Assembly: GCA_016839555.1 (NCBI GenBank)
Contig: JAEOUA010000003.1
Coordinates: 340,112 to 404,111 of the forward strand
Length of the DNA stretch: 64,000 bases
Source: Promethearchaeota archaeon
GTDB taxonomy: Archaea > Asgardarchaeota > Lokiarchaeia > Sigyniarchaeales > SOKP01
Reading direction: 5' to 3'
Position numbers and translations under genes: made by a program. Of the stretch, positions 18,771-31,424 are shown piece by piece. The first letter of the stretch is position 1; every line of letters starts with the position of its first letter. The notes beneath the pieces were generated by a model. It had not been told where the DNA came from, ran no database searches, and was given only the letters and a program-made list of their open reading frames with translations.

Positions 18771-20186
18771 CTAATTTTTATTCTTGTCTCGATAAAGAAA
18801 TATAAATATCGAAATTTCAATAATAATAAAAGCAATTAAAGAGAATATTTCTTTTTCTATATTGATTATAGTATAGATAAATAAAACAATAAATAATAAG
18901 GCGGTTCCAGCCATTCCTATGATTGGAAAAATTATATTGCTATTAGTTGATTTTCTTGCTTTATAATTAGAAAAATTAATGATAAAAAATATCTGGGCAA
19001 AAATAAGTCCTGCTATACCTGCTATAGCTAACGCCCCTCCTGTGAAAATGGTTAATAATATACTCACTATACTTGTTAATATAATTGAGTTATAGGGAAC
19101 TTTATTTTTACTCATTTTTGAAAATTTGCTAGGTATTACATTGTCTTTAGCCATTTTATAGGCAAGACGAGAGGATCCTATAATGGTTGCATTCATGGCA
19201 CTTAAAGTTGCCAATAAAGCACAGACACTTATAATAATTAATCCTATTATTCCTAAGGCTTTTTGTGCCGCTAACGCAATCGATACTTCCTTTAGATGAC
19301 CTCCTTGATTTAGAATACCGGAAACACCTAATATCGCCATGCTTGAAAAAGCAGTTAAAATATAAACTATCATGGAAACAACAAGCGACCATTTCATCAT
19401 TGACAATCCTTTCTCCCTATCTTTCATTTCATGAGAGCCATATGCAATGAGCTGAAAACCTTCATATGAAATGATTATCGATGCACTTCCAAATAAAATC
19501 CCGAGAAAATTCATATTTGAGAACGAATCTATATCTAATCCTTCATTTTCTAAAAAAATTTCCATATTTTGGGATGAATAAAGTAATCCCGAGATAATAA
19601 ATAAACTAAGAATCATTAAAATAGAAATTACTAAAATATTTTGTAGTCGAGAAGATTCCTTCACTCCTTTTAAATTTAAAATCGTAATGAAAATAAATAT
19701 AATAAAAACAATAATAGATATCAATAAATAATTGAATTCCAAATTAAAAAGATAAATAAAATACACGCTAAATGTATAAGCATATAGAGCCATTGTTGCG
19801 ATATAGCCAAAATAGATCAAAAGTCCAGCAAATTTTCCCATTTCCTTCAAATTTGAACTTGATAAAGCCTTTTGTATGCATGTAAATTCTCCCCCAGGAG
19901 TAGACCATTTTAAATTTAATTTATGATAAGAATATACCGTAAATAGAGTAATTATTCCCGTAATCAGATATGATAAATATGTATAAGGCCCCGTATATTC
20001 TGTTATTGCCCCTATTACGCTAAATATTCCTCCACCAACTAGCCCTCCAATACCAATCATCAGGCAGCTAAATTTACTTAGGTGTTGATGAAAATCTTTC
20101 TCATCGTCTTCCTTCTCTTTTTGTTCTTTTTGATCTACTATAACCGGTTTTTCATATTGTTCTTTTTCTAGCATGTATACTTTCAC
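18771..20186 (-). CDS. APC family amino acid permease
   Basis: IGGLVGGGIF, SYEGFQ, SSRLAYKMAKDNVIP; about 12 hydrophobic segments. Confidence 0.88.
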   Translation of the reverse strand: MKVYMLEKEQYEKPVIVDQKEQKEKEDDEKDFHQHLSKFSCLMIGIGGLVGGGIFSVIGAITEYTGPYTYLSYLITGIITLFTVYSYHKLNLKWSTPGGEFTCIQKALSSSNLKEMGKFAGLLIYFGYIATMALYAYTFSVYFIYLFNLEFNYLLISIIVFIIFIFITILNLKGVKESSRLQNILVISILMILSLFIISGLLYSSQNMEIFLENEGLDIDSFSNMNFLGILFGSASIIISYEGFQLIAYGSHEMKDREKGLSMMKWSLVVSMIVYILTAFSSMAILGVSGILNQGGHLKEVSIALAAQKALGIIGLIIISVCALLATLSAMNATIIGSSRLAYKMAKDNVIPSKFSKMSKNKVPYNSIILTSIVSILLTIFTGGALAIAGIAGLIFAQIFFIINFSNYKARKSTNSNIIFPIIGMAGTALLFIVLFIYTIINIEKEIFSLIAFIIIEISIFIFLYRDKNKN

Positions 20187-26445: not shown

Positions 26446-27243
26446 ATGATTATCGAATTATTAGTAATTGGGAATGAAATTCTTATCGGTAAAACGCAAG
26501 ATACTAATTCTAATTGGATTGTTAAAAGAATTGCGAAATACGGGCATAAAACACGGAGAATTACTGTGATTGGAGATGAGATTGAGGAAATTTCTTCAGC
26601 AATTCAAGAAATTTTAAACCGTAAACCAGATATGATTATTACTTGCGGTGGACTTGGCCCCACATTTGATGACATGACTAATGAAGCGGTAGCAAAAGGA
26701 TTAGGACGGAAATTAGTATTAAATGAACATGCTTATAATAGTATTAAAAAAGCATATAAACGAGCTTATGAACAAGGAATTGTAAAACTTGATGGAATGA
26801 CTAAAGAGAGGGAGAAAATGGCATATATGCCTGATGGGTCAACACCACTGCCAAATACTAAGGGAACCGCACCAGGAGTAAAAATAAAGCAAAATAAAAT
26901 TAATATTTATATCTTGCCGGGTGTTCCTAATGAAATGAAAACAATATTTAGAAATGTTATTTTGCCCATTTTAAAGGATAAACAAGGAAAATTCTATCAA
27001 AAAGGATTTATTTTTTCCGGGATTGGAGAATCTCATATCGCTCCGTATGTGACTGAACTCGAGGAGAAATATCCAGATCTCTGGATAAAAACACACCCAC
27101 GAATTGGTCTTTCTGTTGAAGTGGAAATCTCCATCACCTGTTTTGATAAAGACACTTGTGAAGAAAATATTAATAAAGCATTAAAAAAGCTAAAACAGAT
27201 AGTTAAAGAATTAGATGGAAAAATAATTAAACAAAATACTTAA
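26446..27243 (+). CDS. CinA-like molybdopterin-binding domain protein
   Basis: GNEILIGKTQDTNS, GGLGPTFDDMT, GTAPG, LPGVPNEM, GESHIA. Confidence 0.88.
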   Translation: MIIELLVIGNEILIGKTQDTNSNWIVKRIAKYGHKTRRITVIGDEIEEISSAIQEILNRKPDMIITCGGLGPTFDDMTNEAVAKGLGRKLVLNEHAYNSIKKAYKRAYEQGIVKLDGMTKEREKMAYMPDGSTPLPNTKGTAPGVKIKQNKINIYILPGVPNEMKTIFRNVILPILKDKQGKFYQKGFIFSGIGESHIAPYVTELEEKYPDLWIKTHPRIGLSVEVEISITCFDKDTCEENINKALKKLKQIVKELDGKIIKQNT

Positions 27244-27246
27244 AAT

Positions 27247-27319
27247 ATGATGGCACCTCGCAGGTGAAAATTTCAATAAGCAATCGCTTCAAGCGTTTGT
27301 GCTTATATCATTAACATCA
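27247..27319 (-). promoter_or_regulatory. Eukaryote-like SECIS element in the selD 3' UTR
   Basis: Minus strand: ATGA-T, stem ATAAGCA/TGCTTAT, CAAA, ministem CGCT-TGA-AGCG, then T-GA. Closed by TGATG/CATCA. Confidence 0.88.
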
Positions 27320-28351
27320 TTAATAATTTGAAATTTCTATGTTTTCGATTTCTTTAGATATTCTTATTTCTCCCGGTGTTTTATCATCGATTTCACCAAC
27401 GATCCAGTTTGAAATCTTCTTAGTTGAAAGAGCATTCGAAAATTCTTCGACTTTTTCTGAATCAATAGCCATTAACATTCCACCAGCAGTTTCATGTGCT
27501 ATACATTCATCAAAAGCATATCCCAATTCATCCGAAAGATCTTTCGAGAGTTTAATCGAAGGAGTTTTGGTTATTATCCCCGAAAGTTTAGAATGCTGGA
27601 GCATTTCTTTAGCATGCCCAGCAAGACCAAATCCTGTAACATCTGACATTGCATGCACAAACGAAAAGTCATTAAATGAATGGATAGTCCTGATAACATC
27701 TTGATTTGGTGTGGTCATAATTTTTATAGCAATATCAATGGAGTTTTGTAGTTCTGTTCTCGAATAATTTTCTAATAATTCCGGCATATCCTTTAAAATT
27801 CTATAAGCAGCCATTATAGCTTGCAAACCTATAGGTTTTGTAAGGATTAGCTTATCTCCTTTTTTTACTCCACTTTTTCTTATAATTGTATCTTTATGTG
27901 CTATTCCTGAAGCTTCTCCTCCTATTAATGGCCAATCACAATAAATCGTGTGTCCCCCCACTACTTCTGATCCCACTTTATTTTCCATAAAATATTTTAT
28001 CCCCCGAAGAATTCCTTCTGATATATAACTAGGAGTAGTGGTAGTAACTGCTAAAAAAATCAGCATACCACCATTAATATCTAGCACATTCATGGCAAAA
28101 ATATCGTTTGTTACATTGCAAGCTGCTATTTCACCTTGAATTTCTGGCTCATCAACAATAGGGGTAAAAATATCTAAATTTTTCACCAGAACTAATTCCG
28201 TCCCTTTTATGGGAATTACCGCCGCATCATCAATATCACCATATAGCCCCGTTTTAATTAAAAGTTCTTCCAAGTTGGATGCACCTAATTTACATGATCA
28301 TCCATGTATTTTAACCATTGAGGTTAATCTATATTCTTCTTTTGCTTTCAT
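27320..28351 (-). CDS. selD: Selenophosphate synthetase, selenoprotein (Sec18 = TGA at 28300-28298)
   Basis: ATG at 28351 gives MKAKEEYRLTSMVKIHG-TGA-SCKLGASNLEELL, in frame with the track ORF. DDAAV, DIFTPIVD, DIFAM, GGHT, DVTGFGLAGH and ETAGG motifs. Confidence 0.95.
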
Positions 28352-28493
28352 CACCCACAGCCTTCATTCTTTTTAAATTTATGATTTTCCTATTTTAAAG
28401 AATATAAGATTATATAAAATATTAATGTTTTCGATAAATTAATCGAAGAGATCGATAAATAAATAAAGAAATTATTTTATTTGTAAAAAAAAT

Positions 28494-31424
28494 TTATAAA
28501 AGAATAAAATCAATTTTTTTAAATATAACCTTAGGGATATTATGAGCTCCTTTATAAGAGATTTCAAGATTAATTTCAGAAGGTTCCATAGTCTGGCTAT
28601 TATTTTTTATTTCCTTATCAATTTTAAATAGATATTTAAATTTAAAATCATTACCCGCTTTTAAATCATTAAGTTGGAAATATTTGGGGTGGCTTTGATC
28701 TAATAATTTTATATAAGACGGTGATTTAAGAGTAAAAGATAATTCTTTAAAGTCATAATTAGAAGAATTATTTAATCGTAAATTCATTTCAAGATGATTT
28801 CCAATAGTTTTAATTTTTTTAAATAGAGTAGGCTCCTTAAAGTCGGGAAATTCTAAGCCAATTTTCGGACTAATAATTTTTTCATCAATTATTTTTGCAT
28901 CTAATTTATCTTTATCAATATATTTTAATAATAACTCTTTAATTCGTTCTGTCTCTAACTCAATATAGTTTGAAAGAAGTTCAATTGAGATGGGATTCAT
29001 TATGTTAAGATAATGTTTCACCTGAAATAGAAATAATTTCTCATTATTCTTCATAACAAATTTTTTTAATTTATAGATCATTAGTTCTTTAGTTTGTTCC
29101 CATTTTTCAAGAATGGGATTTATATATAAGTTAAATCCATTAGATTTTGGTTTAAATATTTCTTTAGTTTCGATAATATTATCAATCTGTTCTTCAGTTT
29201 TATCAATAAATAGTTTAATCTGTGAGGAATTCATTTCTAAAGTTTTTTTCGCCTGTTTAAAGTTGCCCTTTCTCATTAAAGCATTTAGTTTCAATGTCAG
29301 ATGTTCGAGATTATGATTTAACTTTTTAATTCCATTAATACCATATGTTATTATTTCATTTATATAGGATTGAACTATTTGAAATGTTAATTCATTGCTT
29401 ATGCCATTAATATTATGAATATTTGATAAATCTTCAGAAGATTTAATAGAAAACACGGTTTCAACAATTTTTTGCTTTAATGATTTAATTTTTTTATCTA
29501 TTTTATTTAGATAAATTTGTATGTCTATTTTCACTGAAATCCATTTATTAATAAGATCTTTAAAAAGATCATCAAATTCAATATTATTAATAATAGTTTC
29601 TCTAATATCTATGTCCAATTTAAATAAATTTTTTCGAATTAAGGAAATATAATTAAATTTTTCTTGAAATTCTTGTTCTGAATAAATATCAAGATCTAAA
29701 GCTTGGGACCAGGTATCATCCTTTTTAATATAATCAAATTGGGCTTTTAGAATGGTAATTCGATCCATTAAAACATTAATTTTAGATTGGAGATTTGATA
29801 TATGCTCTTGCTTTTTTTCCTCACAAATAGATGAGAGACTCACTCGGATTAAAGATAATTCATCAATGATTTGTATTTTAGTTTCCTTCCAATCTTCAAT
29901 TAAATCAAAAGCAATTCTCCTATATTGGAAGTTATTTATTCTTTCATTAAATGTATGGATTTTTTTAATAATATCATCATACATTTGATTTAGTTGAATT
30001 TCGGTAGTATTAAACTTGAAATCATTAATATAAGTATTTATTTTTTTTCGAAATTCTGCGGGAATCCTCTGAAAGTTTTCAATTTTTTCTCTTAAAAATG
30101 AAATTTCTCTCGAAATTTTTTCAATAGTACTTTTAATAGATGGGAAATTTGATTCGATTATTTTTAAAGTATATTCGATTTCCTCCTTAACATTTAAGTC
30201 ATGTTCATTTTCCAAGAATTCATTTAATTCTATATATAACCATATCCCAATTTTCTCATCTTGTAAAATATTGATCAATTTTTCAAGTAATTCAACATAT
30301 TGCTTACGTTTTCTCCAATATTTCGATTCCATCTCATATAATATTTTTATAATCTCTTTTTCAATTTCTAATTGATATTCTTTATATAATTGTTTAAAAG
30401 TTATGGCAATTGTTTCCCTTATATTTTCAGAAGGATTATCTAATTCTTTAAAGAGATATGGAAAAATTTGTTTAATATGAGTTTGACATAATTGATATAA
30501 TGCCTCTTCTAAAATATAATTATATGAATCTTTACTAGATTCCGATATTAAATTGATTAAATTCGCCCAAATTTGTTCGAAGTTATTTTCTGCAATAATA
30601 TTCAAGGCATCAATAACTTCATTCTGAATTCCATATTCTTTATTTTTAAGGAAATTAATAATTTTAGGAATAAAAGGAATTATCTCGGATGACTTTTCTT
30701 TGCCAATTTCTCCGAATAACCAGATGATTAACTTTTTTACCCTTGGTTTTTCATTATATAAGAGATTTAATAAAACATAGAAAATTTTTTCTTTTGTCAC
30801 ATAATATTGTCCTAAAAGTTTTAATAATTCTGTTGCTGCTTGAGCAACGTCATCATCCTCATCTCTTAAATTTATTATTACTATTGAGAGAAGAGGTTCT
30901 ATACTTTTGATTTTAGTGTAATCTTGATTAATTAATTTCTTAATAATAGTAATGACGATCAGCTTAACTTTCCAATCATTATCCATTAATTTCTCTGTAA
31001 AATCATCTAAAATTGCTGATAATTTATCAGAATCAATATGAAGAGTTAAAAGTAATTTTCCAATAATTTTAACTGCTAATCGTCGTACAGAATCATCTCG
31101 GTCATATAATCGCAAATCGAATTCATCTAATAAATCTATTAATAAATTAGGCCTATAAATGGAAATCTGATATAAAATCTCGAGAGCAGCCAGCCTAATC
31201 CAAGAATCTTGGTCATTGATTAATCCTCCAATTATTTTAACAGCTTTTAAAGAAATTTTTGGGGATTTATCACATATTAGACTTAAATAATTTAGTGCAT
31301 TATAGAGATTTTCTTGATCATGCTGAGAATGGCAAGTCTCTATTGCTAATAATAAAGCTTTTAAGGCATCGGTGAAATTACCGTCTAAGATCAATTTCTC
31401 AATATTTTCCAATTTCAAATTCAC
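28494..31424 (-). CDS. HEAT-repeat protein with coiled coil, PCI-like segment and C-terminal beta-sandwich
   Basis: DQDSWIRLAAL, DRDDSVRRLAV, DNDWKVK and DEDDDVAQAA HEAT signatures; C-terminal LEMNLRLNN...LNDLKAG..FKFKYLF. Confidence 0.75.
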   Translation of the reverse strand: MNLKLENIEKLILDGNFTDALKALLLAIETCHSQHDQENLYNALNYLSLICDKSPKISLKAVKIIGGLINDQDSWIRLAALEILYQISIYRPNLLIDLLDEFDLRLYDRDDSVRRLAVKIIGKLLLTLHIDSDKLSAILDDFTEKLMDNDWKVKLIVITIIKKLINQDYTKIKSIEPLLSIVIINLRDEDDDVAQAATELLKLLGQYYVTKEKIFYVLLNLLYNEKPRVKKLIIWLFGEIGKEKSSEIIPFIPKIINFLKNKEYGIQNEVIDALNIIAENNFEQIWANLINLISESSKDSYNYILEEALYQLCQTHIKQIFPYLFKELDNPSENIRETIAITFKQLYKEYQLEIEKEIIKILYEMESKYWRKRKQYVELLEKLINILQDEKIGIWLYIELNEFLENEHDLNVKEEIEYTLKIIESNFPSIKSTIEKISREISFLREKIENFQRIPAEFRKKINTYINDFKFNTTEIQLNQMYDDIIKKIHTFNERINNFQYRRIAFDLIEDWKETKIQIIDELSLIRVSLSSICEEKKQEHISNLQSKINVLMDRITILKAQFDYIKKDDTWSQALDLDIYSEQEFQEKFNYISLIRKNLFKLDIDIRETIINNIEFDDLFKDLINKWISVKIDIQIYLNKIDKKIKSLKQKIVETVFSIKSSEDLSNIHNINGISNELTFQIVQSYINEIITYGINGIKKLNHNLEHLTLKLNALMRKGNFKQAKKTLEMNSSQIKLFIDKTEEQIDNIIETKEIFKPKSNGFNLYINPILEKWEQTKELMIYKLKKFVMKNNEKLFLFQVKHYLNIMNPISIELLSNYIELETERIKELLLKYIDKDKLDAKIIDEKIISPKIGLEFPDFKEPTLFKKIKTIGNHLEMNLRLNNSSNYDFKELSFTLKSPSYIKLLDQSHPKYFQLNDLKAGNDFKFKYLFKIDKEIKNNSQTMEPSEINLEISYKGAHNIPKVIFKKIDFILL

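Follow-up and report, generated by a model that had tools for sequence, protein, structure and literature searches.

What fills the 76 nucleotides (nt) between two convergent stop codons in an Asgard archaeal genome, and does the small extra hairpin found there belong to the signal for selenocysteine (Sec) insertion? The locus lies in a 64,000-nt stretch of the Promethearchaeota archaeon assembly GCA_016839555.1 (contig JAEOUA010000003.1, positions 340,112 to 404,111 of the forward strand), hereafter the window, to which all coordinates without a contig number refer. A minus-strand element at 27244-27319 occupies the whole gap between the TAA stop (27322-27320) of selD, which encodes selenophosphate synthetase, and the stop of a gene on the opposite strand (27241-27243). 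We consider it probable, at roughly 0.78, that these 76 nt are the selenocysteine insertion sequence (SECIS) element of selD, folded as a kink-turn (K-turn) within a three-way junction, and that the extra arm is an integral module of it, serving as a scaffold, a second contact or both. Type II-like SECIS elements after Asgard selD genes are already known; what is new is that the 'extra branch' is a conserved and co-varying part of Asgard SECIS architecture. An initial annotation made from the sequence alone had recognised the element as filling the gap between the two stops, and its segmentation of the sequence is exact.

The gene upstream, selD (27320-28351, minus strand), is a selenoprotein gene. 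Translation with TGA read as U, from an inferred start ATG at 28351, gives an in-frame Sec codon UGA at 28300-28298, the GUSCK position (...KIHGUSCKLG...), and profile searches of the product identify AIRS and AIRS_C domains and a match to the NCBIfam equivalog TIGR00476 of 191.6 bits against a cut-off of 125. The genome holding the window (3.74 Mb in 12 contigs, given here as C numbers) encodes a 472-amino acid (aa) EFSec with an archaeal-type aSelB_III domain at C5:407787-408710 (+). A tRNA-Sec-like match lies on the same contig, 5.4 kb from EFSec (C5:402244-402331, minus strand; locus L091); it scores 45.3 bits with Rfam, slightly below the gathering score of 47, and ARAGORN calls no gene at this locus. 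Further genes with in-frame UGA codons in this genome comprise four frhD/vhuD genes (two UGA each), an hdrA (one) and two Prx-like genes. The selD UGA, EFSec, the tRNA-Sec-like match and the other UGA-containing genes together indicate that this organism reads UGA as Sec, and the element is placed where an archaeal or eukaryotic SECIS would be expected. From there it would direct the UGA approximately 990 nt upstream (28300-28298) to be read as selenocysteine.

RNAfold returns the three-way junction formed by the extra hairpin and a closing helix, as had been proposed from the sequence, both as the minimum free energy (MFE) structure and as the centroid (-15.5 kcal/mol). The closing helix, P1, is predicted by RNAfold and supported by alignment covariation; its 5' strand UGAUG starts at the first base past the stop (27315-27319) and its 3' strand CAUCA (27248-27252) follows one unpaired C (27253). 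The 5-base pair (bp) P1 would be continuous with a 2-bp canonical (C) stem in which UU (27313-27314) pairs with AA (27271-27272), as indicated by covariation and mutual information. Sequence and alignment place the bulged strand of the K-turn at 27308-27312, comprising the bulge AAU (27312-27310) and then G-A (27309-27308), which together with the preceding base makes up the AUGA SECIS core; the non-bulged strand (27273-27275) comprises a U at position 3n followed by G-A (27274-27273). Above a U.U at 3b.3n (27307/27275), the non-canonical (NC) arm (27276-27307; RNAfold, covariation and RNAalifold) would continue as a 7-bp helix II (AUAAGCA/UGCUUAU, 27306-27300 with 27282-27276) and a type II apex, in which RNAfold leaves a CAAA bulge unpaired (27299-27296), opposite the AU at 27284-27283, below a 4-bp ministem (CGCU/AGCG, 27295-27292 with 27288-27285) and a 3-nt apical loop UGA (27291-27289). 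The third arm would then leave the non-bulged strand between the C stem and P1: a UUUU linker (27267-27270) leads to a 5-bp hairpin at 27254-27266 (CACCU, 27266-27262; loop GCG, 27261-27259; AGGUG, 27258-27254), supported by RNAfold, RNAalifold and covariation, with a loop of the form G-C-R.

The upper part of this structure falls within each numeric bound of the type II model of Huang et al. (2024; PMC11227280); this and the other sources given below with a PMC number are cited from excerpts of their text. The core 5'-GA...[G/A]A-3' is formed by GA 27309-27308 and GA 27274-27273, the upper stem has 7 bp (7-15 bp with up to two mismatches in the model), the ministem 4 bp (2-8 bp), the apical loop 3 nt (2-6 nt) and the bulge between upper stem and ministem 6 nt, counting CAAA plus AU (4-12 nt), and the element lies in the 3' untranslated region (UTR) of a gene with an in-frame UGA, the selD GUSCK codon. 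The euryarchaeal GAA_A asymmetric bulge with G-C flanks is absent from both sequence and fold. The initial annotation had assigned to the element the AUGA/GA core, unpaired A's and ministem of eukaryotic type II SECIS rather than the Methanococcus GAA/A form, which sequence, fold and the type II model all bear out, and its remark that Loki SECIS elements resemble eukaryotic ones was already in print (Mariotti et al., 2016, PMC4989117; Huang et al., 2024, PMC11227280). It had also called the 7-bp helix II unusual; this length is in fact the family norm, and a short main stem of Loki SPS (selD) elements had been described before (Mariotti et al., 2016; PMC4989117).

The case for the junction comes from its relatives. 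We retrieved 80 Asgard selD loci, of which 79 have a reachable stop, and all 79 carry an in-frame TGA near the N terminus. Alignment A1, made with MAFFT without structural input, contains 100 elements: that of the window, 73 from best-match copies and 26 from second copies; the 99 distinct elements among them are the basis of the counts out of 99 below. With the proposed structure 90.2% of cells are paired, against 31-48% when the 3' partners are slid, both sides change in 19 of 24 pairs, and none of 500 shuffles reaches any of five measures. P1 (helix 1) is 91.7% paired, with pair 2-78 occurring as UA 26, CG 19 and AU 18 and pair 5-75 as UA 80, CG 7 and UG 7. The extra arm (helix 5) shows both-sided changes in five of its six pairs (e.g. 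A-U 53/G-C 41 and C-G 75/U-A 23). RNAalifold run on A1 alone recovers P1, helix II, ministem and arm de novo, with compensatory changes in 14 of 18 predicted pairs, and the top three column pairs in an all-against-all mutual information analysis are in the arm (60-71), the C stem (8-52) and again the arm (59-72). The same scan, inspected for a tertiary partner of the arm loop, returned only helices and neighbouring columns.

Of the 99 distinct elements, 94 have an unbroken arm stem of 4 bp or more, 97 keep at least four of the five P1 pairs and 96 keep both pairs of the C stem. A1 excludes six best-match copies whose apex is divergent and type I-like (L007, L032, L039, L047, L055 and L078); judged by eye, the arm and closing helix are there as well. 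The arm loops of this family read U-GCG-A and U-GCA-A, the first loop base being an invariant G in 100 of 100 selD elements, and the junction linker is commonly 3 nt (AUU, AUA or AAU) in relatives. The third arm, which the annotation had singled out as unusual, is thus a regular part of the sampled Asgard SECIS elements rather than a local addition, as its presence in other families and after frhD genes (see below) also shows.

Many of these loci (L010, L011, L014, L016-L018, L021 and others) carry tandem pairs of Sec-containing selD genes with a SECIS after each copy, and the arms of the two copies differ with compensation (CCACYU.../...ARGUGG vs CUGUU.../...AACAG). Multiple selD copies were noted by Huang et al. 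(2024; PMC11227280).

R1, a covariance model derived from A1, finds the element as its single significant match in the 64-kb window (82.3 bits, E 7.6e-20) and as the sole strong match in the 3.74-Mb genome. The other window match (19434-19494; 10.7 bits, E 2.1) and a weak genome match lacking the 3' GA (C9:110431-110511; 21.5 bits) are attributed to chance. Among 151 genomes sampled across the phylum and searched with stricter filters, R1 had matches in 22 of the 25 further genomes belonging to the home family and in none of the 126 genomes from 26 other families. Given that the same layout is seen in selD 3' ends of other families, the absence of R1 matches outside the home family reflects sequence divergence and not absence of the element.

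These selD 3' ends come from 20 Sec-containing genes of six other Asgard families, with 38-45% identity in 19 and 53% over a partial match in one. A custom parser that demanded, besides the core and helix II, the closing helix and an arm no shorter than 4 bp identified P1, a C stem of 2-3 bp, the K-turn and the arm in 15 of the 20. In the remaining five (L167, L174, L179, L180 and L186) the arm and closing helix are visible by eye, helix II being mismatched or the arm 3 bp long. In one family (f7; L173-L182) the UGA stop of selD doubles as the UGA of the K-turn (GUGA or AUGA core) and the C stem has 3 bp. Here the final selD codons (...IETEFP) contain the 5' strand of P1, whose covariation with the 3' partner is nonetheless kept (e.g. 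GAGACCG/CGGUCUC, GAGGCCG/CGGCCUC, GAAACCG/CGGUUUC and GAAACUG/CAGUUUC); the closing helix may explain why the C-terminal ...IETEFP is conserved. Arm loops in this family are CGCAA, CGCGA, UGCGA and AGCAA and those of other families AGCA and UGCA, so that G-C-R is common to the home family and the other Asgard families and the loop is GNRA-like in several of them.

The C stem, formed by the two bases past P1 on the 5' side and the two bases past the 3' GA, is paired in 99% of A1 cells (helix 2). Its -1b.-1n pair is C-G in 69, U-A in 28 and U.G in two of 99 elements, and its second pair, U-A in 89, A-U in four and C-G in two, is a standard pair (G-U included) in 96. The bulge is AAU in 57, GAU in 17 and UAU in 15 elements, the bulged strand carries GA in all 99, and the opposite strand carries GA in 96 and AA in three. 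With a 3-nt bulge, tandem G.A/A.G pairs and a Watson-Crick C helix, the core looks like a standard K-turn by its sequence signature. Position 3b.3n is A-U in 38 and U.U in 33 elements. According to the rule for this position in PMC4382518, G at 3n permits ion-driven folding of a K-turn and a Watson-Crick pair prevents it, the rule as stated there not covering U.U; since 39 of 99 elements have a Watson-Crick pair and only 13 have G at 3n, SECIS K-turns would probably need an L7Ae-family protein or the junction in order to fold.

On the 5' strand P1 runs into the C stem without a gap; on the non-bulged strand a linker of 3-5 nt separates the C stem from the arm, which rejoins P1 after 0-1 nt. 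This recalls the k-junction, a K-turn in which an additional helix on the non-bulged strand likewise creates a three-way junction (PMC10573300, PMC4005666). A k-junction has its third helix opposite the bulge and is not folded by L7Ae (PMC10573300), whereas here the arm does not stand directly opposite the bulge: the branch is set off from the G.A pairs by 2-3 canonical C-stem pairs, and in the element itself it comes after two C-stem pairs and the linker.

The arm is not confined to selD. Elsewhere in this genome the 3' ends of four frhD genes and one Prx-like gene show a closing helix, with a small hairpin between it and the 3' GA. A search for frhD returned 61 loci, of which 56 were examined after removal of one at a contig end (L150) and four that are 33-38% identical and not Asgard (L152-L155). 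All 56 Asgard frhD genes have two in-frame UGA codons and are followed by a near-perfect 8-bp helix II, and a strict parse for an arm of at least 4 bp plus a P1 of at least 5 bp succeeded in 45 of 56 loci, compared with 205 successes among 1120 shuffled controls. In alignment A2 (59 frhD-type elements, MAFFT) the paired cells amount to 87%, against 38-57% with slid partners, both sides change in 16 of 20 pairs and 0 of 500 shuffles match; A2 retains one misaligned row (L088), which lowers these counts, and some rows with P1 out of register. In 57 of 58 frhD-type elements a G-C pair joins the base preceding the AAU bulge to the one that follows the 3' GA, and G-C-R is present in the arm loops of the selD, frhD and Prx-like elements alike.

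A descriptor scan of this genome for the type I core and helix II only gave 22 matches. The arm and P1 are present in all eight that follow an open reading frame (ORF) with in-frame UGA, namely those of the four frhD genes, one Prx-like gene, two small ORFs and a 54-codon ORF with two UGA, and in three of the 14 others, nine of which lie inside long reading frames. That the arm would be a selD-specific regulatory site on an ordinary SECIS, for example in feedback on selenium status, is very improbable given arm, P1 and G-C-R loop after frhD (45 of 56 in the strict parse), after the Prx-like gene and after these three further UGA-containing ORFs.

Some of these loci call for separate mention. 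In 32 of 56 frhD loci (set L095-L151) the stop codon is the UGA of the AUGA core; such overlaps of stop and core, and frequent UGA stops, were described by Mariotti et al. (2016; PMC4989117). One of the small ORFs (C7:6067-6540, plus strand; approximately 157 codons) has two adjacent in-frame UGA codons (...GCUUDKF...), and a type I SECIS core with the arm and closing helix follows 5 nt after its end. The other (C2:30229-30600, minus strand; 123 codons) has one (...SSETUTMAFCG...), and the arm loop of its SECIS is UGCGU. The 54-codon ORF (C6, around 314181, minus strand) contains two in-frame UGA codons, its stop is the UGA of the SECIS core, and a NiFe hydrogenase large-subunit gene is located some 1.4 kb upstream; the ORF may encode a VhuU-like small selenoprotein. 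The second Prx-like gene (C7:265673-266044, minus strand; one in-frame UGA) has a 3' end unmatched by the SECIS descriptor, whose MFE structure is branched with no clear 3' GA adjoining a helix.

How might the arm contribute? We suggest that arm and P1 would jointly brace the very short C helix and thereby let the K-turn form, and that the arm loop would offer a second contact, either for a Sec-insertion protein or as an RNA tertiary contact, the latter being conceivable since the loop is GNRA-like in several families. The arm has a fixed place beside the very short C helix, and its loop is kept while the stems vary; a junction combined with a contact is the most economical reading. Binding of a protein by the arm is possible, as a predicted role only. 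For the K-turn itself the candidate primary binders are two short L7Ae-family proteins: PF01248 occurs in this genome in just two short open frames, of 136 and 144 aa, and a long SBP2-like L7Ae protein is absent. The two L7Ae-family genes lie at C1:149165-149437 and C11:43759-44031. We know of no binder for any archaeal SECIS. Archaea are without a reported SBP2 homologue according to the cited literature, including excerpts of Mariotti et al. (2016; PMC4989117) and Sun (2021).

The alternative that survives best sees P1 and the arm as a passive insulator with no specific partner, an Asgard equivalent of the eukaryotic helix I and internal loop, kept solely to prevent mispairing of the K-turn hairpin with the surrounding mRNA. 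It fits the free covariation of the stems, the linker lengths that differ between gene families and the plain lower stem and internal loop seen by Huang et al. (2024; PMC11227280) below the core. What it leaves unaccounted for is the loop, in which the first G is invariant in 100 of 100 selD elements and G-C-R recurs across gene and Asgard families while the stems change, together with the fixed place of the arm on the non-bulged strand, 2-3 bp below the G.A pairs. We therefore regard a purely passive role as unlikely.

Slightly less likely still is a division of the element into a K-turn hairpin that alone is the SECIS and an adjacent transcript-end module, consisting of the arm and P1, that acts as a terminator, in 3' protection or as a block to convergent transcription. 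The element does occupy the extreme 3' end of the gene, with convergent stops on either side, that of the cinA-like neighbour being only 4 nt from P1; a T4 is found within 60 nt after P1 in 90 of 99 relatives, at a median distance of 15 nt, and in frhD loci a T run often follows P1 directly. A T4 within 60 nt is, however, expected anyway in an AT-rich genome, and a terminator scan of 26900-27700 finds no site at the arm, where the G+C-rich stem with an immediate T run of an intrinsic terminator is lacking. The arm is followed by CCAUCA (P1 3' strand) and not by T's, and P1, whose 5' strand precedes the K-turn, encloses the SECIS. The same arm is kept in an frhD locus (L090) whose next gene is co-directional. 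The missing site, the P1 strand after the arm, the enclosure of the SECIS and the co-directional frhD neighbour make a terminator unlikely. In family f7, moreover, covariation of P1 persists even though its pairing involves the final codons of selD, and a plain stability hairpin would not need a conserved loop sequence. The suggestions in the initial annotation that the arm terminates the convergent cinA-like transcript or stabilises the 3' end are disfavoured by this evidence.

Against the selD SECIS with an integral third arm stand several points. By itself the sequence does not fold significantly better than its shuffles (z = -1.26; 22 of 200 equal or better), and since the thermodynamics of one sequence proves nothing alone, the evidence beyond chance is comparative. 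Rfam cmscan of 26800-27800 on both strands, at E up to 10, reports no SECIS family, its four weak matches all lying outside 27244-27319, and the RF00031 SECIS_1 covariance model does not match the element at E up to 10. The 100 sequences of A1 come from one GTDB family, whose relatedness inflates the counts of co-varying cells in statistics that are not tree-aware. The 2-bp C stem is too short for energy-based prediction, which leaves covariation as its evidence. The wider-family results depend on a self-written parser, with five of 20 elements read by eye, and the role of the arm is one that we infer from sequence comparison. A look-up of public RNA runs covering 26900-28400 returned none. 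Finally, a Loki vhuU SECIS with a predicted MFE of -6.9 kcal/mol was inactive in M. maripaludis (Peiter and Rother, 2025), which we list as weakening the case; it does not separate the readings.

With respect to described systems, the element corresponds most closely to the 'SPS lokiSECIS' of Asgard archaea, which likewise stands right after Sec-encoding selD and has the AUGA...GA core, short main stem, unpaired A's and apical stem (PMC4989117, PMC11227280). Mariotti et al. (2016; PMC4989117) reported a conserved structure after the stop of Loki-like SPS (selD) genes that resembles the type II SECIS of eukaryotes with its main stem shortened and an apical stem added, and Huang et al. (2024; PMC11227280) found the type II form in most Asgard selD genes and gave the numeric model used above. 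The former account has a stem with AUGA before and GA after it, and the latter a core, upper stem and apex over a lower stem and internal loop. The text excerpts of both, without their drawings, make no mention of a junction, a 3'-side hairpin or a C stem beside a 3-nt bulge, and those of Sun (2021) and of a 2026 review (PMC13188914) mention no extra hairpin or junction. Full-text literature searches for SECIS with three-way junction, kink-turn, L7Ae and lokiSECIS, which do not cover drawings or supplements, returned no description of the junction; the arm may appear uncommented in a published drawing (Mariotti et al., 2016, Fig. 5 and S4).

With the eukaryotic type II SECIS (RF00031) the element shares the AUGA/GA K-turn-like core, the A's above helix II, the ministem and a 3' UTR location far from the UGA. 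It differs in its 7-bp helix II, in the 2-bp canonical C stem after the 3' GA and in the third helix that branches between the core and helix I, and it has no Rfam match. As in Methanococcales, it would be an archaeal 3' UTR recoding signal working with an aSelB-type factor, but without the GAA/A asymmetric bulge and the run of three G-C pairs of that SECIS. In box C/D RNAs, and in the U4 5' stem-loop within the U4/U6 junction, an L7Ae-family K-turn binder recruits a second protein that reads neighbouring RNA. The sequence AUGAU...UGA is similar to that of box C/D RNAs, a comparison we offer by analogy only. The extra arm also resembles the bacterial SECIS hairpin in its short stem, small loop and G at the first loop positions. 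The bacterial hairpin, in contrast, directly follows the UGA and serves as the binding site of the SelB winged-helix domains, whereas EFSec here (472 aa, with aSelB_III) has no wing domains; we reject the arm as a bacterial-type SelB hairpin and regard the resemblance as a likeness only.

Tentatively, and with rather less confidence than for selD, the architecture may extend to Asgard SECIS elements in general: they would be K-turn three-way junctions whose third arm, with its N-G-C-R-A (GNRA-like) loop, is the missing second determinant of archaeal Sec insertion. The arm might dock a still unknown archaeal SECIS-binding factor or aSelB, or might act as an RNA clamp that pre-folds the K-turn, a job taken by SBP2 in eukaryotes; if such a general junction exists, the eukaryotic internal loop would be its remnant. 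How an archaeal SECIS in the 3' UTR is linked to the ribosome is a long-standing open question, and Asgard elements are used as a bridge to the eukaryotic system. Should the full junction be the functional unit, reporter and binding experiments with bare hairpins would miss part of the signal, and the conserved arm loop would provide a concrete bait and mutational target for the missing factor. Search models for Asgard SECIS could gain specificity as well, since demanding arm and P1 in this genome kept all eight true core matches and dropped 11 of 14 chance ones.

Of the surroundings of the element, the convergent neighbour (26446-27243, plus strand) is a 265-aa ORF of the CinA family with a MoCF_biosynth domain (PF00994), whose top NCBIfam rows are NMN-deamidase-related or CinA and all under the curated cut-off. 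A weak snoR79 (box C/D) match within the coding end of selD (27330-27394, minus strand; 17.5 bits, E 1.8) was dismissed as chance. Immediately upstream of selD, on the same strand, lies a repeat-rich ORF of 976 aa (28494-31424).

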